Source: a virus. From it: a stretch of 64,000 nt of DNA. The notes beneath the pieces were generated by a model. The model did not search any database, was not told the DNA's origin, and saw only the letters and a program-made list of their open reading frames with translations. Shown piece by piece: positions 141 to 36,082 of this stretch (position 1 is its first letter; each line of letters opens with the position of its first letter). The stretch lies in IMG/VR virus record IMGVR_UViG_3300007760_001422, positions 1 through 64,000 of that record; one strand, 5' to 3'. The translations under genes were made by a program, and so were the position numbers.

Positions 141-371
141 TTAGCCCCATCTGGACAGTAAATCAATCGCCTGCTCAAGATGCCTAAGCCCTTTCGTAGC
201 ATTCTCATCCTCTGGTGCCGCTTGGGTCGCGGTTCGTATCTGATCATACACTCTATCAAGCGTGGCAATCTCTTCCTTGATACTATCCGGTCCAGTATAG
301 GGCATGGCACTATCCACCCCTTCAATCTCTTTTTTGATAATCTTTCTAAGTTGTCGTTTTGTGATTTTCAT
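141..371 (-). CDS. small protein with N-terminal MKITKRQLRKIIKKE motif (putative internal head protein)
   Basis: 76-aa ORF with AGGA RBS and CTATTTA motif upstream; N-terminus shared with ORFs 8490-8837 and 35402-36082. Confidence 0.7.
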   Translation of the reverse strand: MKITKRQLRKIIKKEIEGVDSAMPYTGPDSIKEEIATLDRVYDQIRTATQAAPEDENATKGLRHLEQAIDLLSRWG

Positions 372-402
372 TTTGTGTTTTCCTATAAAATGATGGTATT
401 CA

Positions 403-409
403 TAAATAG
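403..409 (-). promoter_or_regulatory. putative late promoter motif CTATTTA
   Basis: Same heptamer recurs in intergenic gaps before structural genes. Confidence 0.55.
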
Positions 410-459
410 GTTGAGTGGTTACTTTTTGTATCTTTATTCATTCTTCACTCTTTTCCTCA

Positions 460-497
460 TATGAACCGCATGCTCTATCCAACTGAGCTACGAGGGC
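460..497 (-). pseudogene. tRNA(CAT) 5' half (positions 1-37), 3' half absent
   Basis: GCCCTCG-TA-GCTC-AGTTGGATA-GAGC-A-TGCGG-TT-CAT-A gives an acceptor strand, a perfect D-arm and half an anticodon arm. No CCGCA, T-arm or CGAGGGC follows. Confidence 0.75.
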
Positions 498-1224
498 ATT
501 GTAATTCACGAATACGGGCATTCGCTACATCAACATATTCTGGATTGATCTCTATCCCAATAAAATTTCTATTTGTTTTTATTGCGGCGAGTGCCGTTGT
601 GCCGGATCCAATGCAATTATCTAATACAACATCTCCCTCATTTGTATATGTTTTAATCAGATATTCAAACAGGGCCAGTGGCTTTTGTGTCGGATGGTAT
701 ACCTTCCCCTCGCTTTCAGCAGTTTTAAAATATTGCACAGTGCGAGGATAGCGCATTCCAGTATCATTCTTCACAAGAACCGACTTTTGCTTTCCATAGA
801 CTTCGGTTGGCCGGTGAGCCTTGCCCTTGTTATATGGAGTGCTCTGCCACATTTGTGGATTATACACCGGTGGCTTTTTATAAAACACACACACGTCTTC
901 ATGAGCCCTCATCGGCATTTTTTTCGCATTCAAGTAACCGGTGGCCTTTGATTTTTCCCAAATCCAATTATATTTAAATTCTTTAATGTTCGAACTAATC
1001 AATACGCTAGTAAATGGCTGTGCGGACGTTAATACCACAGCTGCATTCTGTTTGATTACTCTCTTATACTCTTTCCACAATTCTTCAAGTGGGATGATTG
1101 TATCCCACTTGCATTGTGTGGTGCCGTATGGTAAATCACACAATATCATGTCAATTGAATCATCAGGAATCTCTCTCATCGTTTCCAGACATTCACCTGT
1201 ATATATTTTATTCAGAGACTTCAC
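475..1224 (-). CDS. DNA amino-methyltransferase (N6-A/N4-C, beta class)
   Basis: Catalytic motif IV ILCDLPYG near the N-terminus, HPTQKP, SAM-binding VLDNCIGSGTT and FIGIEINPEY near the C-terminus. Confidence 0.93.
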   Translation of the reverse strand: MKSLNKIYTGECLETMREIPDDSIDMILCDLPYGTTQCKWDTIIPLEELWKEYKRVIKQNAAVVLTSAQPFTSVLISSNIKEFKYNWIWEKSKATGYLNAKKMPMRAHEDVCVFYKKPPVYNPQMWQSTPYNKGKAHRPTEVYGKQKSVLVKNDTGMRYPRTVQYFKTAESEGKVYHPTQKPLALFEYLIKTYTNEGDVVLDNCIGSGTTALAAIKTNRNFIGIEINPEYVDVANARIRELQCPRSSVG

Positions 1225-1849
1225 TACCCTTCAACCTCTCTTCAAAAACATCCATAATGCTCTGAACATATTCCTTCAACTTTTTGTGATTTAACGGCTT
1301 ATGGTTTTCTTTCTTCCAGATTGGCTTTGTACTGCTTCGCTTTCCATCGGTTAAAAAACTAACACTACCGATGTGCCCCTCGTCCATGATAAAATCATAT
1401 GACTCTTTTTTAACAGAATTTTCAATAGCCAAGACAGAACTAGAAATATTACTTTTAGTATACTTTCTGATCATCCTACAGTCATCAGAGGCTCTAATAA
1501 GATAGCATCGATCCAAATAGGCCTTGCACTCTTCAATGTGAATCAAATCTCCGTCAATATATTGATGGCGGTCAACTTGCATCTGAATGGCATTGCCATT
1601 TTCATTAGTGCATTCAATCTTTCTTTCATCTCCCTTGAGGGTTTCGAATTTGAAACCATAAAGATTGGCATAGTGACTGCCCACCGCAGCCCATGCTGTC
1701 TCTGATAGTTTTTCACCCAGAGCGCCATTCATGTATCGAATTCGGCCGCCAACGTTGGGGGCGTGCGAGATTGAATCAATCTCTTTCATTGTTTTAGTAT
1801 AAAGATTATTTACTTTTTTACAAACACTATTAAACATTTCTTTTTGCAT
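1208..1849 (-). CDS. putative PD-(D/E)XK nuclease, possible restriction endonuclease partner of the MTase
   Basis: GALGEK...QVD(x)n IEECK pattern; overlaps the MTase start. Confidence 0.5.
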   Translation of the reverse strand: MQKEMFNSVCKKVNNLYTKTMKEIDSISHAPNVGGRIRYMNGALGEKLSETAWAAVGSHYANLYGFKFETLKGDERKIECTNENGNAIQMQVDRHQYIDGDLIHIEECKAYLDRCYLIRASDDCRMIRKYTKSNISSSVLAIENSVKKESYDFIMDEGHIGSVSFLTDGKRSSTKPIWKKENHKPLNHKKLKEYVQSIMDVFEERLKGSEVSE

Positions 1850-1857
1850 ATCTCATC

Positions 1858-2079
1858 CTATAATTTTTTTGTTTTTCCTCTAAATATTTGATAGAACACT
1901 GGTTTTTCTTTTGCATAGCAAACCGTTACATAGAAAGCATATCTATTGTTTGTCTGCATTGAAATTCCCATTTGTACGTTCCCACAAGAACAAGTATCAG
2001 CAGCGTTCCCTTCGTGAAAGTCGCTATGAAAAAACACGTCCTTGCACAAAGGGCACTCTATCTTTACTTTTTCTGCCAT
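1858..2079 (-). CDS. small zinc-finger protein
   Basis: CPLC...CSCGN; ATG at 2079 preferred because the GTG at 2088 abuts the -10 box. Confidence 0.65.
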   Translation of the reverse strand: MAEKVKIECPLCKDVFFHSDFHEGNAADTCSCGNVQMGISMQTNNRYAFYVTVCYAKEKPVFYQIFRGKTKKL

Positions 2080-2090
2080 ATAATACACCC

Positions 2091-2119
2091 ATTATACAAT
2101 GTTTTAGTTTAAAAAGCAA
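2091..2119 (-). promoter_or_regulatory. sigma70-type early promoter
   Basis: TTGCTT-17 bp-TATAAT upstream of the zinc-finger/nuclease/MTase genes. Confidence 0.7.
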
Positions 2120-3071
2120 GAGATATTCTTTTAAAATTTGCAAACATATCTGACCAATCATATGAGCCAAAGCCGTCCTCCAACATCGCCTTAAGAACTT
2201 CGGTTTTGTTAAATTCAGGATTAAAGTTTTTTATCACATGATTGATGCGTTGTTTCCCCTGTATGCTAATTAAAGGCGAATATAACTGCATCAGTTTATA
2301 ATTTTCTTTAATAAGTTCAACGTTATCAACAATATTTCTGTAAGCTTTAAGATTCGAATCTGTAAGCTCACAAAACTCACTGACTTCCGGAATGGAATAA
2401 GTCTTTTCTTCTTTTAAAAAAGGTAGTCTTTTCGCCACTGTGGGCATGCCAATCGCTGGAACCCCGGGAAGATTGTCTGATTTATCACCAGCAATGGCCC
2501 GGGCTAAGGCAAAATTAGTCGGATGTATGCCATACATATCAACAATTCTGTTAGTGTTTAAAACTTGCTTTTGAATTGGCCTTAAGACAACGGTTGTATC
2601 GTCACAAAGTTGAAAAAAATCTTTATCACTAGAGACTATAACCTTTTGCCATTCACTGTAATGTTTATGTCGAACAACATAAGAAATAATATCGTCGGCC
2701 TCGACTGAATCTAGCATCAGCTGCATGACCGGCATGCTGTTAAGAACTTCCACCAATCTGGTCTGCTGCCAGATTTTATTTTTGATTTCCTCTTCCTCTC
2801 CCAAGGTTCTAATATCTCTATTCAGTCGCAGTGGTTTTCGACCAGCTTTATAGTTTTTGTTTGTTGATTTTCTCTTTTTTGACCCGCCGGGGCCGTCCCA
2901 GCAGATCACAACCCCATCGGGTTTTATTTCTCTGATTAATTTTTGTAGGATCTTTAAAAAGCCCTTTAACCCACCGATTGGATCGCCATTGGTTGATAGA
3001 CTAGGGTCAACAATATATGCCCTGAAATACATATTGAGGGCGTCGATGATGAGCAATCTTTTAGTTTTCAT
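2109..3071 (-). CDS. 5'-3' exonuclease / flap endonuclease (PolI N-terminal domain / T4 RNase H family)
   Basis: LLIIDALN, YKAGR, VEADDII, IVSSDKDFFQL, GDKSDNLPGV motifs. Confidence 0.93.
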   Translation of the reverse strand: MKTKRLLIIDALNMYFRAYIVDPSLSTNGDPIGGLKGFLKILQKLIREIKPDGVVICWDGPGGSKKRKSTNKNYKAGRKPLRLNRDIRTLGEEEEIKNKIWQQTRLVEVLNSMPVMQLMLDSVEADDIISYVVRHKHYSEWQKVIVSSDKDFFQLCDDTTVVLRPIQKQVLNTNRIVDMYGIHPTNFALARAIAGDKSDNLPGVPAIGMPTVAKRLPFLKEEKTYSIPEVSEFCELTDSNLKAYRNIVDNVELIKENYKLMQLYSPLISIQGKQRINHVIKNFNPEFNKTEVLKAMLEDGFGSYDWSDMFANFKRISLAF

Positions 3072-4159: not shown

Positions 4160-4169
4160 GAATAAAAAG

Positions 4170-7606: not shown

Positions 7607-8476
7607 TCAAGACGGCAAATCTTCCGTCCTGCTGTTTTGTTGTACATAAGAGCACTTTGCTACACAGTAAGAATAAGACACATCATATTGCGTAGAATAT
7701 ATACCATATGTTATTTTCATTTTATCATGTTCTGCTCTGCTTTTCACTTGTTTTTTTATTTTATTTAGCAAGCCGCCATCATTGTCAACCACATCATCAG
7801 GTATAGCATAATAATACCTTTTATCTCTAACTTTGTCAAGAGAAAAAAACATTTTTTCTTTTCCGCTTTCAAAGTCAACGATTCCAAAGGTTTGAATGCG
7901 TACTGAAGGGGGCGAATTTGAAAAGGTATCAATGATGGAATCAGAATTTTCAAAGACATTTATCATGTGATAGGTTGAAACAACTACCTCATTAATTCTA
8001 TTGTAATATTCTTTTATGGGCACATCGCCTATTATTTCAGAAACGGTCGCGTTCGAAACAAGATTTATTCTCTCAAAAACACCAGAACGAGCATATTCTT
8101 GCATTACGCCAAACATAAGATTTTCTTGCAGACTTTTCTTCTCGTTTAACAGGCCAAGATCCGGCTTTATATAAAGAATGCTTATTTTATTTTTTTTCTT
8201 TTTTTTAAGTATTTCCAGAGCGCGCAAACAAAGACCAGATATATCGCCACAACTACTTATAAACAAAATATCGCCTTCTATCTTTTTTAAAAAGGGGCGC
8301 ATTTTAAGGATGGAACAATTTTTTTCATATTCTTCGGGGCCGTCATGAGGCAGAACATTAAGGCAATTCTTTCCCTTAATTCCTACATCTATCTTATATA
8401 TTTTATATTGAGAATATTGACTAAATTGGTCCGCCAGATTACACCCGGCGTTTCCTAGTCCTATAATCGATTGCAT
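7607..8476 (-). CDS. divergent tubulin/FtsZ-like protein
   Basis: N-terminal IIGLGNAGCNLAD (FtsZ/tubulin T1 loop), later LVSN and YYNRIN; the GGGTGSG loop is degenerate (SSCGDISG). Confidence 0.6.
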   Translation of the reverse strand: MQSIIGLGNAGCNLADQFSQYSQYKIYKIDVGIKGKNCLNVLPHDGPEEYEKNCSILKMRPFLKKIEGDILFISSCGDISGLCLRALEILKKKKKNKISILYIKPDLGLLNEKKSLQENLMFGVMQEYARSGVFERINLVSNATVSEIIGDVPIKEYYNRINEVVVSTYHMINVFENSDSIIDTFSNSPPSVRIQTFGIVDFESGKEKMFFSLDKVRDKRYYYAIPDDVVDNDGGLLNKIKKQVKSRAEHDKMKITYGIYSTQYDVSYSYCVAKCSYVQQNSRTEDLPS

Positions 8477-8489: not shown

Positions 8490-8837
8490 TTATACTTGTT
8501 CTGGTGGTGTACCTTGTTGTGTTGCGTCGGGGGCCGGTTCAGCATCCGGTGTGGCCGTTGGCTGTTTTTCTTTTTGTTGCATGTCTCGAACCACTGTCGA
8601 CATCGCAGATCTTACATGGCTGGCTTTAAATTTTTCTGGCAAAAAGCTCACAATTAACTCCAGCATTTCTACAAGCTCTTGTGGTGTGTCAACTCTACTA
8701 AAATAATTTGCAAGGCCGGGCACCTTCCCCAGCTTATCACCGACACGCTGGACATCTTTTTGCGTGGCGTCTTCCTCCAGCCCTCTAGAGATTTCTTCTT
8801 TTATGATTTCTTTTAGTCTTGTTTTTGTAATGAGCAT
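8490..8837 (-). CDS. small protein with N-terminal MLITKTRLKEIIKEE motif (putative internal head protein)
   Basis: Shared N-terminal motif; own CTATTTA motif at 8872-8878 and GAGG RBS. Confidence 0.7.
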   Translation of the reverse strand: MLITKTRLKEIIKEEISRGLEEDATQKDVQRVGDKLGKVPGLANYFSRVDTPQELVEMLELIVSFLPEKFKASHVRSAMSTVVRDMQQKEKQPTATPDAEPAPDATQQGTPPEQV

Positions 8838-8871: not shown

Positions 8872-8878
8872 TAAATAG
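8872..8878 (-). promoter_or_regulatory. putative late promoter motif CTATTTA
   Basis: Recurrent intergenic heptamer. Confidence 0.55.
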
Positions 8879-8898: not shown

Positions 8899-10080
8899 CT
8901 ATATTGCTAATTTTTTCATATCTCCAAAATTTTTTCCCACATTCACATTGACAAGAAAGTTGCCAGTATCAGTTTCAGAAAAAGATTTCTTCAATTTTAA
9001 CAAAATATCCATGTCTTTTTCAGACAAATCTATAACAAGCGAATCGTGTATACAAAACGCAAGATGAGATAACCTACCTTCAAGTAGATTATGAATTTTC
9101 ACAAATTGACGGAGAAAAATTTCTGCGGCGGTGGCTTGTATGATATAGTTTACTGCATGGTATTCGTCAGACTCAATTTCCTTTCCAAACATGGTAGTAA
9201 TCTTTTTTCCATCCCAATATTTTTGTTTAATTACGTCCCTCTTGTACATTCTGTCTGAAAGGTGATCCTTGGCAGCGGGATTATATAGCCAAGCAAATAT
9301 TCGTTCTTTGGCCTTCTCTCTAGTCAGTGAGTTTTTGTATACGTTTTTAATGTTCCACGCATGCAGATCTTCCTTTGGCTGTTTCTGTCCCAACAGGGCT
9401 AGCGCCGTTCGAAGTTCCATGGCGTTATAATCAAACTCCACAAACCAATCGTTTTTGGGGCTTAAGATTGCCCTGTGTTCTTTAGCCAGTGTTAATATTG
9501 GAAAATAGTCTTTTTTACCCGTCAGCCTCCCAGTTTTACTACCAAATACATTATAAGAAACGCGGGGTTTTATTTCTTTTAGTTTCTTGACAAATCTTCT
9601 TGTTTTAAGCCTGTGTAGTTCGCCGGCCAGTGAGGATGCGTCGATATTTAAATCTTGCTGTTCGATATCCGAAACCACCCTTGCGAGCGAAAGCAAGAAT
9701 TCATAATTTGATGGCCGATTATAATTTGTTATAACGTAGTTTGTTAATTTATTTTTAATCTCACAATAATCTTTTACAAAATCTTTGGGCACCAAATCAT
9801 AAAAGCAATGCTCTTTTAAATCTAGACCAACCTCCCTCATTGAACGATAGTAAGCCTTAAGGCGATTATTAATGTTCTCCCACTCTTCTTGCAGGCCCGG
9901 AGGGCACACTTTGTCTAAGGTTTGCCCTCCACAATATAACTTTGCACACTCAACATTTACATTTTTTAAGGCCGGTGAGTAACTCCACGTCTGATTAAAG
10001 TGGGGCTGTAGGTTTTTATAAAATTTTGAATTATGATATATTAAAGGACAGTCTCTGTCTATAATTTGAAATATGGCCAT
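8899..10080 (-). CDS. family A DNA polymerase, polymerase domain only
   Basis: TGRL, motif A FDYNAMELR, motif B REKAKERIFAWLY, NYIIQATAA, motif C IHDSLVID; 393 aa. Confidence 0.85.
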   Translation of the reverse strand: MAIFQIIDRDCPLIYHNSKFYKNLQPHFNQTWSYSPALKNVNVECAKLYCGGQTLDKVCPPGLQEEWENINNRLKAYYRSMREVGLDLKEHCFYDLVPKDFVKDYCEIKNKLTNYVITNYNRPSNYEFLLSLARVVSDIEQQDLNIDASSLAGELHRLKTRRFVKKLKEIKPRVSYNVFGSKTGRLTGKKDYFPILTLAKEHRAILSPKNDWFVEFDYNAMELRTALALLGQKQPKEDLHAWNIKNVYKNSLTREKAKERIFAWLYNPAAKDHLSDRMYKRDVIKQKYWDGKKITTMFGKEIESDEYHAVNYIIQATAAEIFLRQFVKIHNLLEGRLSHLAFCIHDSLVIDLSEKDMDILLKLKKSFSETDTGNFLVNVNVGKNFGDMKKLAI

Positions 10081-10092
10081 ATGCGCTCACTA

Positions 10093-11421
10093 TTAATAAC
10101 CAGAAGTAGTTTCATAACTCATTGGACCGGTAGTATATACAAACTCTTCCGATTCCGCAGCAACAGATAGTGCCTCTGCTGCAGCTGCAATCTCCCCTGC
10201 CGAAGATATATCTGCCACTTTTGTCCTATCGATTTCAACTTGTCTTCTGTATTTTGAAACTTTATTTCTTATACTGTCGTCAATATATAACATTATCGTC
10301 CTGTTGTCAATTGTTTTTTTGGCCAAAAGTGATTCAATGTCTTGTAGCGTTTTTTTGTAGTCCTGACGCGTCATGTAACCTTGTAAGCCTTCTTCCATAA
10401 TCCTTAGCTTAAAATAAAAACCACACCAAAACCGAAAACTTAACTTTTCTTCAATTTCATTCTCGGTAATTTTCTTTCGTTCAACCCTGCAAATGACCGT
10501 AGGTTCCCACAATTTACCTTGGGATTTAATTTTTGTCACGTGAGTATTCCTAGAAGAAATATAAGAATCATAAAACAAAAAAGGCATTTCTTTTAAAAGG
10601 GGCAAGTCCTGAATACATGTTTCTTCATAGTAGTTTTCATAAATTTGTTTTACCGTATACGAACCAAAATTTTGTGCCTTTGCGCGGAGGCGCGGGTGTT
10701 TTAAATTTGCTACCAGACGCCACGGGGCATTTTTATCAAGGACAAATCCATGTCTTTTGGCCGCATTTTTGAAAGCATTAAAATTTTTAGATTGCATTTT
10801 TTTCCATTTGACGAGATCGTCTCCATGTTTTGCTCGATCCGAGAAGCCCAAAACCAAGCCGCTGGAGCGCGGATCACAATATTTACTTTTCATTAATGCG
10901 CTCTTTGTGATGGGCACTCCGCTGGCGGCCATGCCGAGCAAAAAGTTCCCAAAGATGTCGAAAAAAATATCAAAATTTGTTATTTTCCCTAAAAGATTTA
11001 ATCTGTCTGCATATACTCCAAAGAAATTTTCATATATCTCTTCAACCAGATCATTATAAATTTTGGTGGGATGGCTGGGTGGCTTGAGTCCGTTTATTGG
11101 AACGACAGCGCCAAAGACATCCAAAGCAGTTAGGCCCGGGGTTTGTCGGTGAAACTCAACAAAGTCTTTATAAGCCGCGGCAACAAAATCTAGTGTATAT
11201 ATCTTTCCCGGGGGTATGGGCGCAATGATATTGTCCCTATCTTGCAAAGCAATGGTGTGACCGGAAGGGCTGGTTCTGCCATACCATGGGCGATCATACC
11301 AATAGTCCATAAGTCGAGTTGGTAGTTCATCTTCGGGCTTTAGGACCTCCTCTTTATAATATTTTCTCTCTTCAAACAGGCGCCTAGTTCCTAATTTATT
11401 TTCTCCTTCCGGTCTTGCCAT
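10093..11421 (-). CDS. hypothetical protein (end of tail/baseplate operon)
   Basis: 442-aa ORF with AGGAGG RBS; no recognised motif. Confidence 0.7.
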   Translation of the reverse strand: MARPEGENKLGTRRLFEERKYYKEEVLKPEDELPTRLMDYWYDRPWYGRTSPSGHTIALQDRDNIIAPIPPGKIYTLDFVAAAYKDFVEFHRQTPGLTALDVFGAVVPINGLKPPSHPTKIYNDLVEEIYENFFGVYADRLNLLGKITNFDIFFDIFGNFLLGMAASGVPITKSALMKSKYCDPRSSGLVLGFSDRAKHGDDLVKWKKMQSKNFNAFKNAAKRHGFVLDKNAPWRLVANLKHPRLRAKAQNFGSYTVKQIYENYYEETCIQDLPLLKEMPFLFYDSYISSRNTHVTKIKSQGKLWEPTVICRVERKKITENEIEEKLSFRFWCGFYFKLRIMEEGLQGYMTRQDYKKTLQDIESLLAKKTIDNRTIMLYIDDSIRNKVSKYRRQVEIDRTKVADISSAGEIAAAAEALSVAAESEEFVYTTGPMSYETTSGY

Positions 11422-18854: not shown

Positions 18855-19193
18855 TTATTTAAATGGCCACTTAAGGCCAGTTTCTTTTTCGAAATTTTTG
18901 ACCGCTTTATCTAAATTATATTTAGACTGATATGTTCTGTCGTCTCCGAGTCCATATCTTCTAAAACTCTGCATGTAACTTTTTTCACCATTCATGGCGT
19001 TTGCAAAAGATTTAATTTCCGAAGGGGTGCCACGAACCGAAACAGGCAAGCCGCTTGGTACATCGCCAAGAAGCCTTCTCATAAGAAGCTTAACTTGGCC
19101 AGCGAACATATCGATCCAGCCTTCGTTTAATTCATTTTTTCGGTGTATCCCTAAATCAACGACCATGGGAACTAAATCATTATTATCTTCCAT
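18855..19193 (-). CDS. hypothetical protein
   Basis: 112-aa ORF with AGGAGGAG RBS and CTAATTA motif upstream. Confidence 0.75.
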   Translation of the reverse strand: MEDNNDLVPMVVDLGIHRKNELNEGWIDMFAGQVKLLMRRLLGDVPSGLPVSVRGTPSEIKSFANAMNGEKSYMQSFRRYGLGDDRTYQSKYNLDKAVKNFEKETGLKWPFK

Positions 19194-19263
19194 AATGAAA
19201 ACTCCTCCTTTTTATAATTAGTAGTGTAATGAAAATAGATAGAGGAAGGCATGCTTAAAAAAC

Positions 19264-19459
19264 TTATCTCGATTTCTTTTTCGCCTTTTCATATTCTTTG
19301 CGCTCATCTTCAAACTGCTTAATCAATCTTCTGACAAACCATTCTCTTATTAAAATGGGAAGGTTGTATGCCTCGATAAAGCTCCAGCCGCCATGGTGTT
19401 TTAAGACAAAAAATTGTTCATAAACGCTTTCAATATATTGATCATCTAGGCCAAAAAAA
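19264..19459 (-). CDS. tail assembly chaperone C-terminal extension (frameshift product, gpGT-like)
   Basis: Frame FFGLDDQYIESVYEQFFVLKHHGGWSFIEAYNLPILIREWF has no good start of its own and overlaps the T7 run at 19453-19459. Confidence 0.65.
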
Positions 19460-20305
19460 GTCCGTCGTAAACGGCACCTCCATTTCTTGTTCATAGCCGC
19501 AATTTTCACAATCAAATGTTTGGCTAAGATCAATGTTTGGGGCTGATTTTGAATAAAATTCTCTAAGGTATTTTGAGTCTAGTGCTGGCATGTTTGCTAC
19601 CAACGTGTTGACTGCTTGCCGGTCTGAATCGCCATTGACAGACTGAATTAAATACCTGCATTGGTCTGTCACGTTGCTATCGGGGAGATTATTTTTTGTT
19701 CTCTTTTCCATGGATTTCACGATTGCTTTTTCGTCAGCGCTGGTCAGCAGTCTAATTCCAACTTCAGCTTTGGTTTTCGGCAGCGTGACATAAAATAGGC
19801 CATCTCTTTCTTCCGCATCATATTCATCAGAAAAATCTTCGCCATGATTTAGCTCTGCCTCATCTAGATCAAATTCAAACTGAACCGATTTTGCGCATGC
19901 TGGGCACTGGACTCTTGTTTTATAGTCTGCCCCATATCCACTTACTCTAGCTGCTACAACAAGAGCGTTTTTGTCTCCAACAAGCAAGTCGGCAATTTTA
20001 ACATTTTTATCGATAATTATATTTTGCAAAAGCCTATCTATTGCAATTCCCTTTCTTAAAAGGGATTTCGATGTCAAAATATCTTCATCTTTTGCGGTCA
20101 TAAACCTAATTTCTATGCTCTCTGCATTGTGCAGTGGATGGCCTTCGGGATAAAACCTGCCCTTGCTTGGCAATTCAACAAATTCCGTGGGAGTTGCAAA
20201 AGAAAAAGATGCAGTGGGATCACTATTTGTTTTATTATTGTCCTGTTCTGTAAAGGCTGTAGGTGGTGGGTCAGAGTTTATTCTTTTCTCATTTCTTGAT
20301 GTCAT
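19442..20305 (-). CDS. baseplate hub / tail assembly chaperone (T4 gp26-like)
   Basis: VELPSKGRFY, MTAKDEDIL, CPAC and CENC zinc pairs, C-terminal VPFTTDFFWP. Confidence 0.8.
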   Translation of the reverse strand: MTSRNEKRINSDPPPTAFTEQDNNKTNSDPTASFSFATPTEFVELPSKGRFYPEGHPLHNAESIEIRFMTAKDEDILTSKSLLRKGIAIDRLLQNIIIDKNVKIADLLVGDKNALVVAARVSGYGADYKTRVQCPACAKSVQFEFDLDEAELNHGEDFSDEYDAEERDGLFYVTLPKTKAEVGIRLLTSADEKAIVKSMEKRTKNNLPDSNVTDQCRYLIQSVNGDSDRQAVNTLVANMPALDSKYLREFYSKSAPNIDLSQTFDCENCGYEQEMEVPFTTDFFWPR

Positions 20306-20328
20306 TGTTACCTCTTAATTTATTGTAA

Positions 20329-20877
20329 TTAGGCTAATTCGAACAATCCTGCTCCAGATGATGAAATTAGCTCTGCCCAGTCATATCTCACGGTCAACTC
20401 TAGATCGGTAAGTGCATCCTCTTCATAAGAAAGCTCACTAAATGTAACCTTTCGAAGCCATGCGTTCTTAAATGTCCACGTTTCAAGTGCGCCTTCACCG
20501 GTTGCGTCAATAATTTCAACGCTAAGTTCTCCCAGTTCTGATATGGCGCTAGCCTTGTCCATTGTAGATAGGCTGTTCATATCTTTTGGGGGACTATATC
20601 CTGCATTTTGAATAATGGTCGACATAACCTCCGCGGCATCAGGGGTGATGGGATCAACCAGTGTGAAGTTCACCTCTGACCATTTGACTCGGCCGGGATA
20701 ATAAAAAGTATGATTAAGATAAGCATGTTCTGCTTCTTGAACCTCTATTTCCGGTCGTGATACTTTTTTAACCAACCATTGAATGTTATCAAAGCTGCCT
20801 AGCGTCAACACAAATCTAAACGCACGTTTAGGGTCTTGAAGTGGTGCCGACCAAAAATTCGTATTCTTATCTGCCAT
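20329..20877 (-). CDS. tail tube protein (gp19-like)
   Basis: PKRAFRF, YYPGRVKW..V.FTLVDP, ETW...NAW, LSY...LTVRYDWA; directly downstream of the sheath. Confidence 0.88.
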   Translation of the reverse strand: MADKNTNFWSAPLQDPKRAFRFVLTLGSFDNIQWLVKKVSRPEIEVQEAEHAYLNHTFYYPGRVKWSEVNFTLVDPITPDAAEVMSTIIQNAGYSPPKDMNSLSTMDKASAISELGELSVEIIDATGEGALETWTFKNAWLRKVTFSELSYEEDALTDLELTVRYDWAELISSSGAGLFELA

Positions 20878-26705: not shown

Positions 26706-28421
26706 TTAGCCAAGCATATCTTCGACAATAACCAGACCATACATATCAGGTCGTACCATCTTCTTCGCATAGCGGGTCATGACCCCCTTGCGCGGTACGA
26801 AGTCTTCCGTACCAAAGATAGTCGGCGTAACTTGTAGTGGCACATACGGAGCGTATACGTAGCCGCTTTCTAAGAAGCTTCCACCCTTACGTCCAACGAG
26901 CACAACATTTCTTAAGAAATATGGGTCAACCCATACATCCCATTTCTTGCTGATGCTACCCGCTTTAACTGCGCCTACGGTGCCTCTGTCTCCATCGGCC
27001 GTAATGTTGGCGCGGAATCCACTAGTGAACTCAAGAAGATTAGCAACCTCTGGTCCTACAACCAAGAAGTTAGCTCCGCCTCTTAAGGTCTTGCGGTGAA
27101 TTTGTGCCGAAACATCATTGATTGTTTCAACAAGCGTCTCATACCACTCTGAAACTGTACCGGTGAAATCGGGGAACAGGCTCTGGTTTGCTGCTGCGCC
27201 AGACTCTTTCTCAACAAATTTACCGGGCTTACGTGACCAGTAATAAGTCTTTGCAGTGGCACCCTTAACGAGATCCTCTAGGATTTCACGATCAATTTCC
27301 AAAGCAATGTGCTCTGAAAGTACGCTAGTAAGCTCAACCTCGGCATCCAAATTGTGATAGGCATTTAAGTCCTGACCAAGTTCCGGAGTCCACTTTGCTT
27401 TGAGCTTCTTGGTGATTGCAGTGACGGACACTGAATCAACGTTGATGTTAATCTCGGGAATATCAGCATTATTCTCAAGACCCCATGCACTTTGACCAAC
27501 AACAGCACCAAGTGCATTATTGGCGCCGGCCGCGGGTGTTCCACCAAGATCATCAGTTTGAGCATATGTAACGGTGTGTGCACCGGTCAAGTCAAACTTA
27601 AGATCATCGACACTTTCAGAACCAGTTGCTTGGAACACGACCAAAAGATCGGGGTTTTGACCAGTAGTAGAACCACTAACTTGAGTCAAACGACGAATCT
27701 GGCGACCTTGCGAATCTTGTGGTTTCGCTGCAGCGGTATTAACATCGCATTTAACTGTTACGAGGTTTTTAAGACTAAGCTGATCAAGAGCAGTAGCTGC
27801 TGCAGTGATCTTACCAATCCAGACAATGCTGCCGGAAAGATCCGGATCGTGACGACAGATGCGGTTGATATCTTCATTCGAAGCTCCAACCGTACCACTC
27901 TGGAATCCTGCGACGGTTACCGAGGAAGCAGAGCCTGTTGGTGAAGAATAACCATTGTTCAACGCATAGAATGCTGTCTCTGCATTCCCATCGGACAAAT
28001 CAACACCGCCCGTCACTTTTTGACCCAAGACGCCACCGCCGTAAACCGAGTCGCCTTCTGTTGCGCCTAGGCGCGTGTGACTATATTTAAAGTCCATGAA
28101 GAAAATCAGGCCCGAAGGCAAGCTCATGGGCTGTACGCTAACAAGATCGTTAGCGATAAGACCGCCGAATACACGGCGAACAATAGGGAACGCCACTGCG
28201 GCAAAGCCCTCGACATCACCGCCGGCCATGGTCGACGCGTGTGACTCACGAAGAAGTTCTTTTGCTTGATTCTCAAGAAGAACCGCCAGAGTCTCTTTGG
28301 AGCGCGCAGAGTTTATACCCTCTAGGAGCCCAGTTTTTTCCCATTTGGATAGAAGGGCGTGGCCCTCCTTAGCGAGATCGCGATTAACGATCCCTTCTGT
28401 TAATTTTTGCAAGACTGACAT
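26706..28421 (-). CDS. major capsid protein (T4 gp23-like)
   Basis: LLENQA, FPIVRRVF, VQPMSLPSGLIF, KLKAKWTPELGQDL.AYH.LDAEVEL, EIDREI, GYVYAPYVPL, PRKGVMTRY. Confidence 0.96.
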   Translation of the reverse strand: MSVLQKLTEGIVNRDLAKEGHALLSKWEKTGLLEGINSARSKETLAVLLENQAKELLRESHASTMAGGDVEGFAAVAFPIVRRVFGGLIANDLVSVQPMSLPSGLIFFMDFKYSHTRLGATEGDSVYGGGVLGQKVTGGVDLSDGNAETAFYALNNGYSSPTGSASSVTVAGFQSGTVGASNEDINRICRHDPDLSGSIVWIGKITAAATALDQLSLKNLVTVKCDVNTAAAKPQDSQGRQIRRLTQVSGSTTGQNPDLLVVFQATGSESVDDLKFDLTGAHTVTYAQTDDLGGTPAAGANNALGAVVGQSAWGLENNADIPEININVDSVSVTAITKKLKAKWTPELGQDLNAYHNLDAEVELTSVLSEHIALEIDREILEDLVKGATAKTYYWSRKPGKFVEKESGAAANQSLFPDFTGTVSEWYETLVETINDVSAQIHRKTLRGGANFLVVGPEVANLLEFTSGFRANITADGDRGTVGAVKAGSISKKWDVWVDPYFLRNVVLVGRKGGSFLESGYVYAPYVPLQVTPTIFGTEDFVPRKGVMTRYAKKMVRPDMYGLVIVEDMLG

Positions 28422-28452: not shown

Positions 28453-29559
28453 TTAAGAATTTTTATTTAATCCTGCTAGTTTTTGCATCCTTTCTATTGC
28501 GGGATCGATCCTTTTAACTTCTTTGCGAGGCAAAAATGTTGTAGAACGCTTTGATACTACTTCGTTCAGTGATTTTGGTGTGCTATTATTTGAAACACTA
28601 CCCACTGCACTTTGAAGGGTCTCAAAAATTGTTTTTGATTCCTCAATAGATTGAGCTTTTGAAATAGCTTCGACAATTTTATTTTTTTGTCGCTCATTCA
28701 GGGAGTCGCTAAGTAAAATTTTATTTGTATATAATAGTTTAGCATTTGAAAGGTTAACTTCACCAAGTTTCTCTTTCATCTGAAAAACTACACTTTTTAG
28801 GTGTTCGTTGTTTTCTTTTAGTTCGCTGGTTTCATCCTCGGATACTAGTTGGCCGGTGTTAACATCTTTAACTCTTCGGCCGGGCTCTTTTGCTGTCGCA
28901 GTGTCGGATGTTTTTGTGCGCTCTTCAATATCAGCCTGTTCCTCTTCCAGCGGCTTAAGTCTATCGTCTGGTGTGTCGCCGGGGTTTCGATCAGGAGAGT
29001 TTTTCTTTGTTTTCTCCTCCAGTGATTGATCCTCTTCTTCCTCTAGTTCCTGTGTTTCTTCCTCTAGAGGCGAATCTTCATCCTCATCTAGCATTATTTC
29101 AGACAATTCCTTTATATCTTCTTCAGACAACCCAAAATCTTCATCTCCTTCAATAATGTTCATCAGCACTGATTCCTGAAGTTCGAGTTCTTCATCTTCA
29201 AGCTCGTCGGCAAATTCTTCTCTGTCTTCTAATTCTCCCGAATCCAATTCGGCCGAATCAATCTGGCGCGCTAGCTCATCAAAATCAATCTCAACCTCCT
29301 CTTCTTCATCAGGACAAGGACACAGCTCTTCTCCATCGGTGGCAGCAGAAGGCACCTGATCAGCAAAGTCGCTCTCCTCGTCGGCCGCTGGATCTTCCAG
29401 TGGCTCCTCTTCAAATTCGTCCTGTTCCAATAAATTATTAACCGCTTCTTTGATGTCTTTTGAGTATTTTTCAATTAAAGCTGTTTCTGCATTTTTAATT
29501 GCTGCTTCTTTTAAAGCTTCCGCATCAATGATGGCTTGATCGAGCATGCTAGCTGACAT
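28453..29559 (-). CDS. prohead core / scaffolding protein
   Basis: Very acidic coiled coil directly upstream of MCP; many (L/I)xE sites; C-terminal RMQKLAGL. Confidence 0.8.
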   Translation of the reverse strand: MSASMLDQAIIDAEALKEAAIKNAETALIEKYSKDIKEAVNNLLEQDEFEEEPLEDPAADEESDFADQVPSAATDGEELCPCPDEEEEVEIDFDELARQIDSAELDSGELEDREEFADELEDEELELQESVLMNIIEGDEDFGLSEEDIKELSEIMLDEDEDSPLEEETQELEEEEDQSLEEKTKKNSPDRNPGDTPDDRLKPLEEEQADIEERTKTSDTATAKEPGRRVKDVNTGQLVSEDETSELKENNEHLKSVVFQMKEKLGEVNLSNAKLLYTNKILLSDSLNERQKNKIVEAISKAQSIEESKTIFETLQSAVGSVSNNSTPKSLNEVVSKRSTTFLPRKEVKRIDPAIERMQKLAGLNKNS

Positions 29560-30824: not shown

Positions 30825-33398
30825 TTATTTTTTAAGGTTAGCGATGGCAGCTTTAAGTTCACTAATCTCATACTGCTGGGCCTTTACAGACTCAACGAGA
30901 ATAGTGGTTAGCTTCGCATAGTCAATACCAAGACCACCTTCAACGGTTCCACCGTATACAACCTCTGGAACTACTTCTTTAACCTCTTGGGCTATGAAAC
31001 CAATATCTTTGGCTCCATCACTCTTCCAATCGTAAGAAACTCCACGCAAGCTCATGAGTTTATCCATTGGATTAACAAGAGTCTTGACGTTCTCTTTAAG
31101 AGTTTCATCAGAATAAGTAACGAAAGAGTGTGCTTTCGCGGTACCATAAGAAGAATTGTTCGGAAGAACGAGACCGTTCGTGCCGTCCCAGAAAGTAGCT
31201 ATAGCTCTTTCCGTTCCAGCCACCAAACAACTAACTACAACCTTTCCGTCTTCTTCGGTGTTTGTAACATCCAAAGAATAACCTGCAATGTTTGCATACT
31301 CGGTTGAGTTTCCACCAGAATCATCACCGGCGAACTCAATCATACCCAAACCGTCATTGTCAGCAGGGCTGGCAGAATCATGGTTGAATTTGAGTATCGC
31401 GGCTTCGGTGTCAGCATTGGAGTTTTTAATCTCGACCACTGGTTTTTCACTAGTCGAAGAATCAATAACAAGACTGGGTGTTGTCATTAAAACTGCAGTA
31501 GCTGCATTTACATCTAATGTCGGAGCAGTAAGGTCGATCTCCGTTGGAGCGGCCACTGCGGTAACACCAGAACCAGCACTACCAATGTATTGATCATCGT
31601 TGTCATCATCTTCGAAGAACAATTTGTTTGTGCTGTTTAATAAAAGACCTTCATTGTGCTTGTGTGTCAAGCTAACATCGGAATCTGCACCAAATCCAAG
31701 TTTGGCGTCATCAGAATCCAACTCAAGGTCATCACCGACATAAAGGTCGGCAGCAACACTTGCACCACCTGCAACAGTTAGCGCACCAGAAGTTGTGCTA
31801 GAAGCTGCAGTAGTTGCTATAATTGCAACTTGTTGACTTGCGTCAACGGTGATTGCGGCTGTTGTGCCATGAGTGGCGCCAACACCAATCTCAAGCTTGT
31901 CAGCACTGTCATCTAGACCCATGCGGAAATCTTGTGCATTACCGTCAAAGACCAAGAAAGTATCCTCCGCACCAGCATCACCGATAGTGAGTTTGGGCGT
32001 GGTTCCTTTGATAACAACACCGGCTGAACCAACTTCCATGTCAATTTGGCCATCTGCTTCAAGTTTCAAAACACCGTCCGAAGACTGTGCGATGAAGGTA
32101 TCGGCATCACCGAATTGCAACTCTCTGCTGCTGTTAAGCAGAATACCGTCATTGTGAACGTGAGTCAGCGTAACGTCGCCGTCATCACCCAAGGAAATGA
32201 CACAGCTGTCAGAGTCCATGAGAAGATCGTCACCAACTTTAATGTCACCATCAGACGAATAGATCACTGCTTTGCTGTTAACAACAGTACCGGCCGAACA
32301 TCCGTCCACCAAGTTTAACTCTTCTGGAGTAGAAGTAACTGAAGTGGTGCTTGCCGCGGCAAGAACTGGTATGTAATACGTACCGGCTGCCATGGCAGGC
32401 AAGTTTAATGTCGCATCTGCAGTTGGATCAATGATACCTAAAGTGGTTTCGTGAGAGTTGGCCGAAGACCCTTCAAACACGAAAGCATTTGTTACATCGA
32501 TATAAGTTTGATTAACAGACGTTGTGGTACCATTAACAGTCAAGTCTCCTGTAACCGTCAAGTTGTCGTTAACTGTCGTCTCGGAGGTCGTGTGACCAAT
32601 CGAAACTGCAATACCGGAAGTTTCGGTTGCAATCTTTAATGCACCAACGGCGTTGGTGATATACGAATTTGTACCATCATGGTAAAGTTGTAAATCGTCG
32701 CCAGTACCTAATTTGATATTAGCGCTATCCGGCATGTCTACGTGAGTAGCAGGTGAAAGCACACCCGCAACGTCAACAGTGCTGGAAAAGTCTGCAGTAC
32801 CATTGAAATCAAGTGCCGTAGCGGTGAAATCAATTTCATCCGTTGCACCAAGTGCCAAAATAGCATTGCTTGATCCGTGGATAAACTGTGACGCGTCGTT
32901 GAATTCAATCTTTTTGGTACCAGCCATCAATAAAGAATCTGCTGATCCATCAATTCTGAAGATCTCTGTTCCGCCTGCATCTTCGAAGACGGCATCTCCA
33001 GCCGTAGTGGCCAAGTCAATTTTAAGACCTGTTGTTCCACCATCTTTGAAAGTGAAATCTCCGCCGTCTGCGTCAAGATTTATGTTACTTGCCACATCGA
33101 GCGTCAAGTCACCGGCGCCGACTGTCATCGAGCACGCGGCGACTGAATTAAATTCTGAAGCCACCAGAGCAGATGCAGATAACGCCGAAGCGCTCACGTG
33201 CAAAGTTGTCACTGGTGTGGAGTGGTTACCCTCTGGACCGATGAACAAAGTCCTTCGATCCGCTTCGTTGCCGGCTCCGGAAGAGCCGCGAGAACCCGAT
33301 ATGTACATCGCACCCAGATTTGAACTAATCGTACCGCTGGTCGACAATTCAAGATCCAGATATGAACCATATGCGGTTGCTGAAATATTACTAGCCAT
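30825..33398 (-). CDS. fibre protein with C-terminal peptidase S74 intramolecular chaperone
   Basis: Gly/Asp/Thr-rich repeats; YSDETLKENV...LRGVSYDWK...IGFIAQEV..VVPEVV...IDYAKL followed by a coiled coil. Confidence 0.88.
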   Translation of the reverse strand: MASNISATAYGSYLDLELSTSGTISSNLGAMYISGSRGSSGAGNEADRRTLFIGPEGNHSTPVTTLHVSASALSASALVASEFNSVAACSMTVGAGDLTLDVASNINLDADGGDFTFKDGGTTGLKIDLATTAGDAVFEDAGGTEIFRIDGSADSLLMAGTKKIEFNDASQFIHGSSNAILALGATDEIDFTATALDFNGTADFSSTVDVAGVLSPATHVDMPDSANIKLGTGDDLQLYHDGTNSYITNAVGALKIATETSGIAVSIGHTTSETTVNDNLTVTGDLTVNGTTTSVNQTYIDVTNAFVFEGSSANSHETTLGIIDPTADATLNLPAMAAGTYYIPVLAAASTTSVTSTPEELNLVDGCSAGTVVNSKAVIYSSDGDIKVGDDLLMDSDSCVISLGDDGDVTLTHVHNDGILLNSSRELQFGDADTFIAQSSDGVLKLEADGQIDMEVGSAGVVIKGTTPKLTIGDAGAEDTFLVFDGNAQDFRMGLDDSADKLEIGVGATHGTTAAITVDASQQVAIIATTAASSTTSGALTVAGGASVAADLYVGDDLELDSDDAKLGFGADSDVSLTHKHNEGLLLNSTNKLFFEDDDNDDQYIGSAGSGVTAVAAPTEIDLTAPTLDVNAATAVLMTTPSLVIDSSTSEKPVVEIKNSNADTEAAILKFNHDSASPADNDGLGMIEFAGDDSGGNSTEYANIAGYSLDVTNTEEDGKVVVSCLVAGTERAIATFWDGTNGLVLPNNSSYGTAKAHSFVTYSDETLKENVKTLVNPMDKLMSLRGVSYDWKSDGAKDIGFIAQEVKEVVPEVVYGGTVEGGLGIDYAKLTTILVESVKAQQYEISELKAAIANLKK

Positions 33399-33434
33399 TA
33401 TATTTTCCCCCCTTTGGAAATATGTTTAATGTAA

Positions 33435-33469
33435 ACACCTCCAGTATATTTAAAACACACCGGTGGCGT
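33435..33469 (-). promoter_or_regulatory. G-U-rich hairpin in the 5' UTR of the fibre gene
   Basis: ACGCC-A-CCGGTGTGT-TTTAA-ATATACTGG-A-GGTGT, just downstream of CTATTTA at 33477-33483. Confidence 0.5.
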
Positions 33470-33556
33470 TGTATCTTAAATAGGGCCCGCATGCAGCGTT
33501 TAGAAGTGAAAAAAAATATTATTTTTAAAAGATGTGTAATGTGAAAAAGATGCGAA

Positions 33557-34723
33557 TCACGATCCGTCTTTTGTCGATCTGCGATCCGATTTAAGTTTGT
33601 TTTCTAGTGAAGATATTTTCTTTTGTTGTTCCTTAACCGCCTCAACCAATATTGGTACTAATCTGGTATAGTCCATACTATAGGCATCGACCCCTTCCGT
33701 TTCCCAGTCAACTATGTCCGGGAGTATTGTACCAACCTCTTCCGCAATGAAACCCAAATCTTCTTTGGTGGAGTTTTTCCACTTGTATGTTACGCCCCTT
33801 AATTTCATAATTGTGTCTATCGGCTCTTCAATGGTCTTAATATCCTCCTTGTAGCGTTTCGACGAATAAGATACAAATGCATTAGCTTTGATGCGACCTG
33901 CAGCGCCGGCGGTATTGGGCAACGTTAATCTGTGAGTTGCACTGTCTGCAGCGACACCCATACCAACATAGCCTGTACTATCATTATAAACCACACTAGA
34001 GGCGGCTCCGAATGCATTTCCGCCATTATTATACTGAAATTGAGTGTCGGCGCCGGCTGGGCGGCCTTCTGTAAGGTCGGTTTCGGCTAGCTCGTTAGAT
34101 CTCCAATAAACCTTGCCATTAGTTTTAGCATATAAATAACCACCAGCACCATCGGACGGCGCGGATGGGGTGGAAGATTCAGCCGAAATGTGCACCAGTC
34201 CCGCAATTGTGGCGGCATTACCATAAATATTACTACCAGATACCACAGAGCCTGTAATTGCACCCAATGCCGATATATTTAGCGTTGTTACTGTATTGTT
34301 AACATATAACGGTTTGTTGAGTTCCATCCTAGAATTGGCATGAGACCACAAGAAAGACGCATCAGTGCCGTCTATTTTAAAGCCGGCCCCGTTCGCAGCA
34401 GAAGAGTCTGCGGCTCCGGAAGCGACTAGTATTGTTGCATCTTGTATAAAAAGTTCTGTTCTTGTATATGCGTCGATGTTCCCAACCACTGTTAGGTTGC
34501 CATTTATTTTAACATCATCGGCCAAGGAAAAGTTAATATCCCCAGAGCCGGAATTAACAGTTATATTTGAATCCCCATTAATTCTAGCGGGTGAGTATAG
34601 CTTGGTGCTGGAGTCATATAAGAGGAACTCACCAGTGACGGGTGGTGATATGTCCACATCGGCAAAGAGAGACAGCGGTTGATCTTGTATTTGTGATGTG
34701 ACAGATTTAGAAAAGCTACCCAT
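33557..34723 (-). CDS. second fibre protein with S74 chaperone
   Basis: YSSKRYKEDI...LRGVTYKWK...LGFIAEEV..ILPDIV...MDYTRL. Confidence 0.85.
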   Translation of the reverse strand: MGSFSKSVTSQIQDQPLSLFADVDISPPVTGEFLLYDSSTKLYSPARINGDSNITVNSGSGDINFSLADDVKINGNLTVVGNIDAYTRTELFIQDATILVASGAADSSAANGAGFKIDGTDASFLWSHANSRMELNKPLYVNNTVTTLNISALGAITGSVVSGSNIYGNAATIAGLVHISAESSTPSAPSDGAGGYLYAKTNGKVYWRSNELAETDLTEGRPAGADTQFQYNNGGNAFGAASSVVYNDSTGYVGMGVAADSATHRLTLPNTAGAAGRIKANAFVSYSSKRYKEDIKTIEEPIDTIMKLRGVTYKWKNSTKEDLGFIAEEVGTILPDIVDWETEGVDAYSMDYTRLVPILVEAVKEQQKKISSLENKLKSDRRSTKDGS

Positions 34724-34752
34724 GCTAATAAATATTTGGGCGGGCGCTTAAG

Positions 34753-34950
34753 CTACTTTTTTTTTATTTTTTTTCGGCGTTCAGCTTCTTTTCTTCTTTT
34801 GGTGGAAGGCTTTTCATAATACATTTTTTCGCGATAGCGGTCAAGAATTTCTTGTTTTTTAACTTTTTTGATAAAGCGGCGCACCATCTTTTCTAGGGGC
34901 TCATCGGGATATTTAGGTTTAACTTCAACGTTAATTGTGCGCTTAGCCAT
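34753..34950 (-). CDS. rpsU: ribosomal protein bS21 (phage-encoded)
   Basis: MAKRTINVEVK...EPLEKMVRRFIKKVKKQEILDRYREKMYYEKPSTKRR matches the bS21 pattern (RRFKK...YEKPS); ATG at 34950. Confidence 0.88.
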   Translation of the reverse strand: MAKRTINVEVKPKYPDEPLEKMVRRFIKKVKKQEILDRYREKMYYEKPSTKRRKEAERRKKIKKK

Positions 34951-34951
34951 T

Positions 34952-35389
34952 CTATTTAACCAACGCCTTCCATGAGCCAGCAGCAACATTCATTATTCCC
35001 GATATGTCAACGCCAGAATCGTTTGGATCCATATTAGATAAAGCGCTGTGTGGCTGGCTATTGCCCTTCTCGCTTCCGCCGGTGGCCAATGGCTTGGTAC
35101 CCTCAAACAAGTTAACGCCACCATACGCATCGGCGTTAATGGCATCGTTCAGTCTTTTTCTTTGCAAATCTAAAGCTTCCTTGTATTGGCTCTCTTTGAT
35201 TCTCATTTGCTGCTCTGTAATTTGTTCTGTCTGGGGGGATGTTTCTTTTGAATTGACAAGACTAGAGGCGTTAACTCCCTGCATAACTTCGGAAATGACA
35301 CTAGACAAGATTCCCTCCTCTATAAGAGACTCTAAAATACACTCCTTAACAATTGGCTTAATAATTCTTTTAAGATCTGATTTCTTCAT
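34952..35389 (-). CDS. hypothetical head-cluster protein (MKKSDLKRIIKPIVKE variant motif)
   Basis: 145-aa ORF in the head operon. Confidence 0.7.
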   Translation of the reverse strand: MKKSDLKRIIKPIVKECILESLIEEGILSSVISEVMQGVNASSLVNSKETSPQTEQITEQQMRIKESQYKEALDLQRKRLNDAINADAYGGVNLFEGTKPLATGGSEKGNSQPHSALSNMDPNDSGVDISGIMNVAAGSWKALVK

Positions 35390-35401
35390 TTATACCTTCT
35401 G

Positions 35402-36082
35402 TTACTCTTCGTAATAACTCTTCTTTTTCGACGGGAGATCAAATCCATGTTGTCTATAGCATGATTCTTCATAAGGTGCAAATTCCCGTACACTTGGGGG
35501 ACCGTGTTGGCTAGTTGTAAGTTCTTCGCGCTTCTTCTCCAGACACCGATTTAGCGCTTCCCTCCTCTCTTCTTTTGACAATCCTCTGCTGCCGCGTCTT
35601 TTTTCAAACTCTTTTTCTTCTTTTTCGCGGTCCCATTGTCTCAACTGTTCGTTGTCCCTGATTTTATCCGCACGGTCTTTCGAAACCCTCTTCTCGGCGT
35701 GACCCTGCACTTGGATAATCAATGCTGTTATATCTTTGATTTTTTGTCTTGCCTTCTCTTTGTCGCTTGAGTCGCCAAGGTTTTTGGCATTTACTCCAAA
35801 TGCTCGTTCGGCTTGGCGTCTTATTCCTTCAAGTTCGTCAAGGAGGGCTTCAAATTGACTGGCTTTGGTGCGCGGTCCTCCTCTTTTGAGTTTTTTAAAT
35901 TTATTTTCCAAGTCCTCTAGCTCAAAGTCGATTCTTATAAACATCCCCGCAGCATCTCTTGATTTAAACCCTAGCATCTTTTTAAGAAAATTCATGTCTT
36001 TGACGCTACCCACTTGCTCGGTCATGACTGCTTCAATTTCTTCTTTGATAATTTGTTTTAGTTTTGATTTAGCAATATTCAT
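35402..36082 (-). CDS. protein with N-terminal MNIAKSKLKQIIKEE motif (putative internal head protein)
   Basis: Directly downstream of the prohead protease; highly charged helical body. Confidence 0.7.
   Translation of the reverse strand: MNIAKSKLKQIIKEEIEAVMTEQVGSVKDMNFLKKMLGFKSRDAAGMFIRIDFELEDLENKFKKLKRGGPRTKASQFEALLDELEGIRRQAERAFGVNAKNLGDSSDKEKARQKIKDITALIIQVQGHAEKRVSKDRADKIRDNEQLRQWDREKEEKEFEKRRGSRGLSKEERREALNRCLEKKREELTTSQHGPPSVREFAPYEESCYRQHGFDLPSKKKSYYEE

Follow-up and report, generated by a model that had tools for sequence, protein, structure and literature searches.

We analysed a window of 64,000 nucleotides, the first 64 kb of the 131,445-bp IMG/VR virus record IMGVR_UViG_3300007760_001422 (G000; CheckV completeness estimate 49%), in which otherwise dissimilar proteins begin with the same short peptide, referred to here as the tag. 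The source is a distant T4-like myophage, and the minus strand carries 113 of the 127 crude gene calls. An earlier note on this DNA had described four open reading frames (ORFs), three starting with the tag and one with a variant of it. All four lie where it placed them, on the minus strand and with the N-termini it gave. Two are orphans within the replication region, where their neighbours are genes for a DNA methylase, a 5'-3' exonuclease, ThyX, RecA, a gp32-like protein and PolA, and each is preceded on the gene strand by its own CTATTTA motif; the other two follow the prohead protease gene. The features concerned are as follows (aa, amino acids; nt, nucleotides; HMM, hidden Markov model; pI, isoelectric point):

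141-371, minus strand: tagged ORF of 76 aa, body without relatives (tag HMM E 1.8e-8, profile A1 E 1.5e-11)
403-409, minus strand: CTATTTA motif resembling a late promoter, 32 nt ahead of the 141-371 start
8490-8837, minus strand: tagged ORF of 115 aa with an orphan body, between PolA and the next replication-module gene
8872-8878, minus strand: CTATTTA motif resembling a late promoter, 35 nt ahead of the 8490-8837 start
34952-35389, minus strand: the 'variant', a conserved head-module protein of 145 aa, non-globular, with a tag-like N-terminus and a conserved V-K-E-C
35402-36082, minus strand: tagged ORF of 226 aa with a basic body (pI 9.2), in a variable slot directly after the protease gene
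36084-36692, minus strand: prohead protease, Peptidase_S77 (T4 gp21 type; Pfam E 1.5e-34, phrog_207 E 3e-55)

From the 17-residue N-terminus common to the three main tagged ORFs we built an HMM of 17 positions and used it to score each of the 3,923 possible ORF starts in the record. It recovers 141-371, 8490-8837 and 35402-36082 at E 1e-9 to 2e-8; the next-best match is a weaker candidate outside the window (G000 129676-131127, minus strand, E 0.002), and the 'variant' 34952-35389 reaches E 0.37. The weaker candidate (= L172:1180-2628) is an ORF of 483 aa with I-S-E at residues 16-18, lies behind CTATTTAT and matches no Pfam family. Translating the record in all six frames gives six occurrences of the core word L[KR]x[IV][IV][KR], four of which are the starts of the four ORFs. 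After removal of the first 20 residues no BLASTP pair among the five tagged or tag-like proteins is better than E 0.012, confirming that the tagged proteins are otherwise dissimilar. Of the 10-11 codons at which the three window tags specify the same residue, just 4-8 are identical; the tags are therefore not recent DNA copies of one another. At 8490-8837 the tagged gene and its motif represent an insertion: of 11 syntenic relatives, 10 have the next conserved gene after PolA with no ORF of at least 40 residues in between, and the eleventh carries an unrelated ORF of 105 aa in this slot. Relatives of the 8490-8837 body are limited to its own cluster and one fragment. AlphaFold2 predicts the tag of this protein as a helix (pLDDT 88-95), the whole model being a single helix.

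The earlier note had counted four copies of the tag. The tag is real, and its scale is far larger, running to thousands. A scan of IMG/VR for the back-translated exact tag pattern gave at least 171 tags on at least 119 viral stretches, often two to four in tandem. Searched against 596 Gb of prokaryote genomes, this pattern was found in only 12 stretches on 9 contigs, all from metagenome-assembled genomes (MAGs) and several with multi-tag arrays; these are probably misbinned phage contigs. A profile of 100 tags (A1) was then run on the record and on four near-complete relatives. At E<=1e-3 (E<=1 in brackets) it matches 30 (39) times in G028, 23 (24) in G008 (96% complete), 22 (30) in G022 (100% complete), 5 (6) in G026 and 3 (4) in G000, so that the scan of genome and relatives proposed in the earlier note returns its three tags in the record and 22-30 in G028, G008 and G022. 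Most profile matches lie in dense arrays of abutting genes. A profile of 40 columns (A4), searched against 1.84 billion cluster representatives, matched 12,507 of them at E<=1e-3 and 280 at E<=1e-10, and all ten of the top proteins looked up are unnamed or 'hypothetical protein' entries from metagenomes. The loci examined hold 334 distinct ATG ORFs with the tag from residue 1-3, with a median length of 108 aa (range 41-375 aa). The MAG contigs (L138-L149) belong to bins labelled Methylococcaceae (a 305,838-bp contig), Halobacteriovorax (a 101-kb contig that carries 7 tags in 4 kb), Acidiferrobacteraceae and others.

Among five cultured phages searched with A1, no tag was found in HTVC008M, P-TIM40, S-SZBM1 and Mel-JY01, and the fifth, Flavobacterium phage immuto, has a short variant only. 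A tblastn search of 50,697 phage records with the 226-aa tagged protein and a 24-aa tag gave no match, the short Lys-rich queries having probably been filtered. A search of the literature, supplements outside, for the tag motif or for capsid targeting in marine or T4-like phages found no paper on this tag. In immuto, at least two unrelated proteins, gp080 (L127:11689-12447) and gp094 (L127:1381-1860), have a tag two residues shorter (M-K-K-S-Q-L-R-x-I-I-...), and gp072 (L003:3654-3875), a 73-aa ORF of the head module, has a looser form. This phage is thus a cultured carrier of a tag variant and as such a handle for experiments; no virion proteome of it was found in the literature listing, nor did the literature searches turn up a proteome of any other tag-bearing phage.

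The consensus of the tag is M-K-I-T-K-x-Q-L-K-Q-I-I-K-E-E-L. Among the matches listed, position 2, which was left free in the search pattern, is Lys in 164 of 171 tags, and synonymous codons vary among the tags (ATC, ATT or ATA for Ile; CTT, CTA, TTA or CTC for Leu), which together indicate selection on the protein. Conservation at the level of the nucleic acid, either as the boundary of a recombination cassette or as a translation-initiation element with the peptide as by-product, could draw on the A-rich start of the tag and on the insertion at 8490-8837. It is contradicted by the variable Ile and Leu codons and by the partial codon identity of the three window tags, and GC-richer relatives keep the peptide with Arg replacing Lys. 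Because of the synonymous variation we consider a purely DNA- or RNA-level feature very improbable. In 171 tags that were found by the profile, outside the search pattern, Leu8 is kept in 169 and Glu14 in 165; position 12 is I in 162, V in 8 and L in 1, while position 13 is variable (K93, R42, A9, L6, Q5, others). This [LIV]-x-E, conserved at both ends and variable between them, matches the shape of the cleavage rule of gp21, given as L/I-X-E in the available part of PMC9026906.

The earlier note had proposed to test the diversity of the downstream domains, and many of the bodies behind the tag are unrelated to one another. Among the matches listed, 152 tagged bodies of at least 30 residues fall into 128 clusters (BLASTP, E 1e-3), 112 of them singletons and 16 with 2-5 members. 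Only a handful of the 150 longest tagged proteins match Pfam, with families of five unrelated kinds, namely two leucine-rich-repeat (LRR) proteins, one pentapeptide-repeat protein, one YkuD L,D-transpeptidase, one GNAT acetyltransferase and one FliG_C. An ordinary, fast-diverging paralogue family, generated by tandem duplication of one small helical protein whose N-terminal helix is kept for folding or oligomerisation, would fit the tandem arrays, the 16 clusters with several members and the fact that most bodies are of about 90 residues, acidic and of no known family. Simple divergence, however, does not give a near-invariant tag next to unalignable bodies. A paralogue family is also difficult to reconcile with body lengths of 41-375 aa, with the 112 singletons among 128 clusters and with the presence of the tag on single inserted genes and inside polyproteins; it fails for the Pfam-bearing bodies and gives no role for the helix. 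We regard this explanation as improbable, although the many small acidic bodies might have arisen in this way.

A single leader on many bodies is likewise the pattern of ribosomally synthesized and post-translationally modified peptide (RiPP)-like precursors that share one radical S-adenosylmethionine (SAM)/SPASM maturase, and the tag could be conceived as the leader for such a modifying enzyme. This is hardly credible, and the radical-SAM leader was ruled out: PF04055 has no match in G000, in G008 (23 tags at E<=1e-3) or in G022 (22 tags), and PF13186 (SPASM) has none in any of the five records, compared with matches in 8 of 14 control genomes.

Tagged genes are found in the company of the prohead protease and its neighbours. 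Of 44 tag-bearing records with a length of at least 30 kb (two further records left out), 30 contain PF03420. It is found in all 4 of the records with a completeness of 90% or more, and the 14 records without it are fragments, at most 81% complete. Among the 21 protease neighbourhoods examined in relatives, the protease gene often has a tagged or tag-like ORF immediately before or after it, and in 7 of the 21 a small tagged ORF directly precedes it. In most relatives the protease gene is followed by the variable slot, then by the conserved gene and then by a small basic ORF resembling S21. The slot, which in the window is taken by 35402-36082, holds unrelated proteins of 80-762 aa, several of them with tag-like starts. 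The conserved gene of 130-150 aa between protease and S21 belongs to the family of 34952-35389 (A3, 17 sequences), whose start is tag-like and in jumbo relatives nearly the tag itself. The earlier note had taken 34952-35389 for cargo; with 32 BLASTP matches among the examined loci (best E 1e-42) it is instead a conserved head-module gene. AlphaFold2 predicts a confident N-terminal helix for it (pLDDT about 90) and no globular fold (pTM 0.23). Alignment of A3 with hhalign to T4 gp68 (probability 0.1) and gp22 (0.2) indicates no homology, and the family matches no PHROG and has no homology to the ORF after the protease of Mel-JY01. A complex prediction of the A3 protein with the A4 tag region scored 0.00 against a mark of 0.32 and, run without controls, weighs neither way.

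We also analysed the motif upstream of the two orphans. The most enriched 7-mer before minus-strand genes of the record is CTAATTA (15-fold, 10 genes), and CTATTTA is enriched 8-fold. CTA[AT]TTA precedes the sheath gene, tail genes, head genes and the probable scaffold, and since CTAATTA and CTATTTA mark tail and head genes, CTA[AT]TTA(T) is a candidate late-promoter word. Upstream regions that contain it include those of window 18855-20877, 46156-46386 and 53950-54885. Within the replication module (0-11.4 kb) the gene list has it before 8490-8837 only, and it also precedes 141-371, an ORF absent from that crude list. In the sampled loci, 16 of 275 tagged ORFs have CTA[AT]TTA in the 80 nt before their start, compared with 89 of 1,101 control ORFs. 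The combination of promoter and tag is therefore a local feature, and the earlier claim of a portable 'late promoter + tag' unit does not hold in general. Most tagged genes are packed in tight arrays. Tag-bearing phages may use other promoter words too.

On balance, we judge it somewhat probable that the tag, in a lineage of uncultured marine T4-like myophages, serves as a portable address helix at the N-terminus, a longer and hugely expanded analogue of the T4 capsid-targeting sequence (CTS). The tag would dock its carrier protein into the assembling prohead core, and the gp21-type S77 protease would clip it after the Glu of I-x-E (positions 12-14). After clipping, the bodies might remain inside the head and be carried into the next host together with the DNA, or they might be driven out again in the manner of scaffold fragments. 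Consistent with this, one tag is found on many unrelated bodies and in a mostly strict N-terminal place; it co-occurs with the S77 protease, clusters around the protease gene in the head module and resembles the start of the conserved head-module protein. Further points in favour are the shape of the putative cleavage site, the helix predicted by AlphaFold2 and the CTA[AT]TTA words that precede the orphans as they do tail and head genes. Of the portable targeting-helix module for injected cargo envisaged in the earlier note, the portable tag, the S77 protease and an I-K-E that fits L/I-X-E are retained, whereas the promoter as a general part of the unit is not.

Several observations weigh against an address to the capsid. 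[LIVM]-x-E occupies positions 12-14 in 328 of 334 tags, but this and the other conservation figures lean towards the tag because profile and pattern were both derived from it. In the window, L/I-x-E is present at these positions in 8490-8837 and 35402-36082 and is lacking in 141-371, because the latter tag has an extra Lys and reads I-I-K-K-E. The putative cut falls inside the predicted helix, and the conserved helical pattern extends past it to about residue 22. With the first 14 residues removed, 277 of 334 bodies have a pI below 6 (median 4.7); such acidity is not what a basic internal protein bound to DNA would show and rather recalls scaffold or anti-defence proteins. The jumbo relatives have most of their tagged genes at a distance from the head genes, in arrays of 10-20 genes. 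Further points are that CTA[AT]TTA is not enriched before tagged ORFs in the sampled loci, that the S77 co-occurrence comes without a base rate for untagged contigs, and that the sequencing runs that contain this DNA are 20 marine-metagenome DNA runs with no RNA run listed.

The main rival builds on some of these points. Here the helix would be a docking handle for a shared partner other than the capsid, either a host hub (such as RNA polymerase, the ribosome or a protease/chaperone) or a phage hub, and the arrays would encode cytoplasmic effectors or anti-defence proteins that are all directed to one place. The small acidic bodies resemble many cytoplasmic anti-defence proteins, most copies are located in long arrays away from the head genes and without a late-type motif, the conserved helix runs beyond the putative cut, and the ribosomal S21 gene adjoins the conserved tag-like protein. 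A docking handle of this kind nevertheless leaves unexplained why [LIV]-x-E is kept with a free middle residue, why tagged genes cluster at the protease gene and resemble the conserved head-module start, and why the tag is restricted to S77-bearing phages. We consider it unlikely.

The capsid-address reading can be compared with what is described for T4. According to the available parts of PMC9026906 and PMC3012670, the T-even internal proteins (IPs) are a diverse set with only the CTS in common, ten residues are enough for targeting while processing depends on residues 8 and 10, and the CTS is possibly a general route by which T4-like phages load varied proteins; the CTS of T4 IPI, IPII and IPIII is cited there as the work of Mullaney and Black. 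Like the tag, the T4 CTS is a short N-terminal peptide on unrelated proteins that ends in hydrophobic-x-Glu, in a genome with an S77 protease, and its cargo genes are scattered and polymorphic. T4 gp22, gp67 and gp68 begin with short peptides ending in I-A-E, L-I-E and I-P-E, respectively. Compared by eye with these N-termini, the tag has a similar short hydrophobic-x-E leader and no real sequence similarity. The tag is longer than the T4 CTS (about 14 residues up to the putative cut, with conservation over about 22, compared with 10) and far more numerous, with 22-30 genes per genome in G028, G008 and G022 and 12,507 cluster representatives compared with three IPs and Alt in T4. Moreover, unlike in T4, most tagged bodies are acidic, the tag recurs inside some of the proteins, and packaging and cutting are putative. 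From the sequences, the tag appears to behave like the T4 CTS on every point checked, but as a different, longer peptide and at a scale that nothing found in the literature searches reports.

Portable short peptides that direct unrelated cargo into an HK97-fold shell are also known as the cargo-loading peptides of encapsulins. These resemble the proposed function of the tag, but they usually lie at the C-terminus, are not known to be cleaved off by a protease and serve a cellular compartment, not a virion. In the phiKZ-like giants 201phi2-1, phiKZ and SPN3US, the propeptides of head, inner-body and ejection proteins are cut at S/A-X-E by a diverged gp21 homologue, as reported in the available part of PMC9026906. 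There, as proposed for the tag, a gp21-type protease acts after Glu on many different head proteins, and the packaged proteins are numerous. In contrast to the tag, the propeptides described in that part of the source are apparently not one near-invariant peptide on unrelated proteins, their P3 residue is small where the tag has Ile, and the phages are not T4-like in other genes.

A bolder form of the capsid-address reading is possible, and we put it forward tentatively as rather doubtful. It holds that above all the jumbo marine T4-like phages of ~290 kb use one 16-residue helix, copied from the start of the conserved core protein, to load a fast-turning-over injected arsenal of more than 12,000 protein clusters with 20-40 members per genome; a second tag class and multi-tag polyproteins cut by the head protease would be part of it. 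If this is true, the tag would be the key to thousands of first-minute host-takeover and anti-defence proteins in ocean viromes. More generally, a head-loading signal would make it possible to recognise from sequence, by one simple rule, which proteins are delivered along with the DNA of abundant ocean phages, a set that is otherwise invisible because the bodies belong to no known family. The T4 strategy of varied cargo behind one short peptide would then have been scaled up a hundred-fold in nature, the long-open role of T4-type internal proteins would become testable on thousands of natural examples, and a new, well-conserved tag would be available for loading foreign proteins into T4-like capsids. 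If the tag docks to another hub instead, it would still mark a very large unexplored effector family.

Some carriers have more than one copy of the tag. The database proteins P0011, P0012, P0017 and P0085 are long and contain 3-4 copies, one at the start and the others internal. Several of the internal copies lack Met, and the proteins look like multi-module polyproteins and not like fused gene calls. The same clade has a second shared N-terminal peptide, approximately M-K-(L/V)-I-M-E-N-W-(R/D/N)-x-F-(L/V)-x-E-E, on other unrelated proteins. This peptide contains I-M-E and is often encoded beside the protease gene; loci include L158:1699-2202(+), L160, L164, L012:4765-5892(+), L095:8194-9843(+) and L098:4267-4986(-). 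Two of its carriers have P-loop kinase-type domains (AAA_33, Zeta_toxin-like). A regular-expression search for the second peptide in G000 found none.

Further genes of the head module were identified in the window, all on the minus strand; genes for the large terminase and the tail sheath were also identified in the record.

26706-28421, minus strand: major capsid protein, gp23 type (phrog_138, E 6.8e-67)
28453-29559, minus strand: probable gp22-like scaffold of 368 aa, very acidic; the gene immediately precedes that of the major capsid protein and lies behind CTATTTAT
34753-34989, minus strand: ribosomal protein S21 gene, directly after the conserved tag-like head-module gene 34952-35389
38568-40544, minus strand: portal protein (gp20 type), start of the head module (phrog_213, E 4.4e-75)

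The capsid protein has a single L-R-E N-terminal to its conserved core, where T4 gp23 has L-T-E. The scaffold assignment of 28453-29559 is based on position, composition and a short N-terminal match only, the latter comprising 34 aa of the ORF that precedes the capsid gene of phage immuto (E 9e-5); a PHROG search gave no match. The N-terminus of the protease 36084-36692 itself contains L-R-E, L-C-E and L-T-E. Its best cultured matches are Flavobacterium phage immuto with 45.6% identity and Microcystis phage Mel-JY01 with 53.5% over a shorter stretch.

In the replication module, the family-A DNA polymerase is apparently split (window 8899-11421, minus strand). The 442-aa ORF 10093-11421 has no Pfam match, and the 393-aa ORF 8899-10080 (minus strand), which comes next, matches the C-terminal part of DNA_pol_A only. 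The gene 7607-8476 (minus strand, 289 aa) is kept directly after PolA in 10 of 11 relatives. Its product matches neither Pfam nor PHROG and starts with G-L-G-x-A-G-C, a glycine-rich stretch reminiscent of a nucleotide-binding loop.

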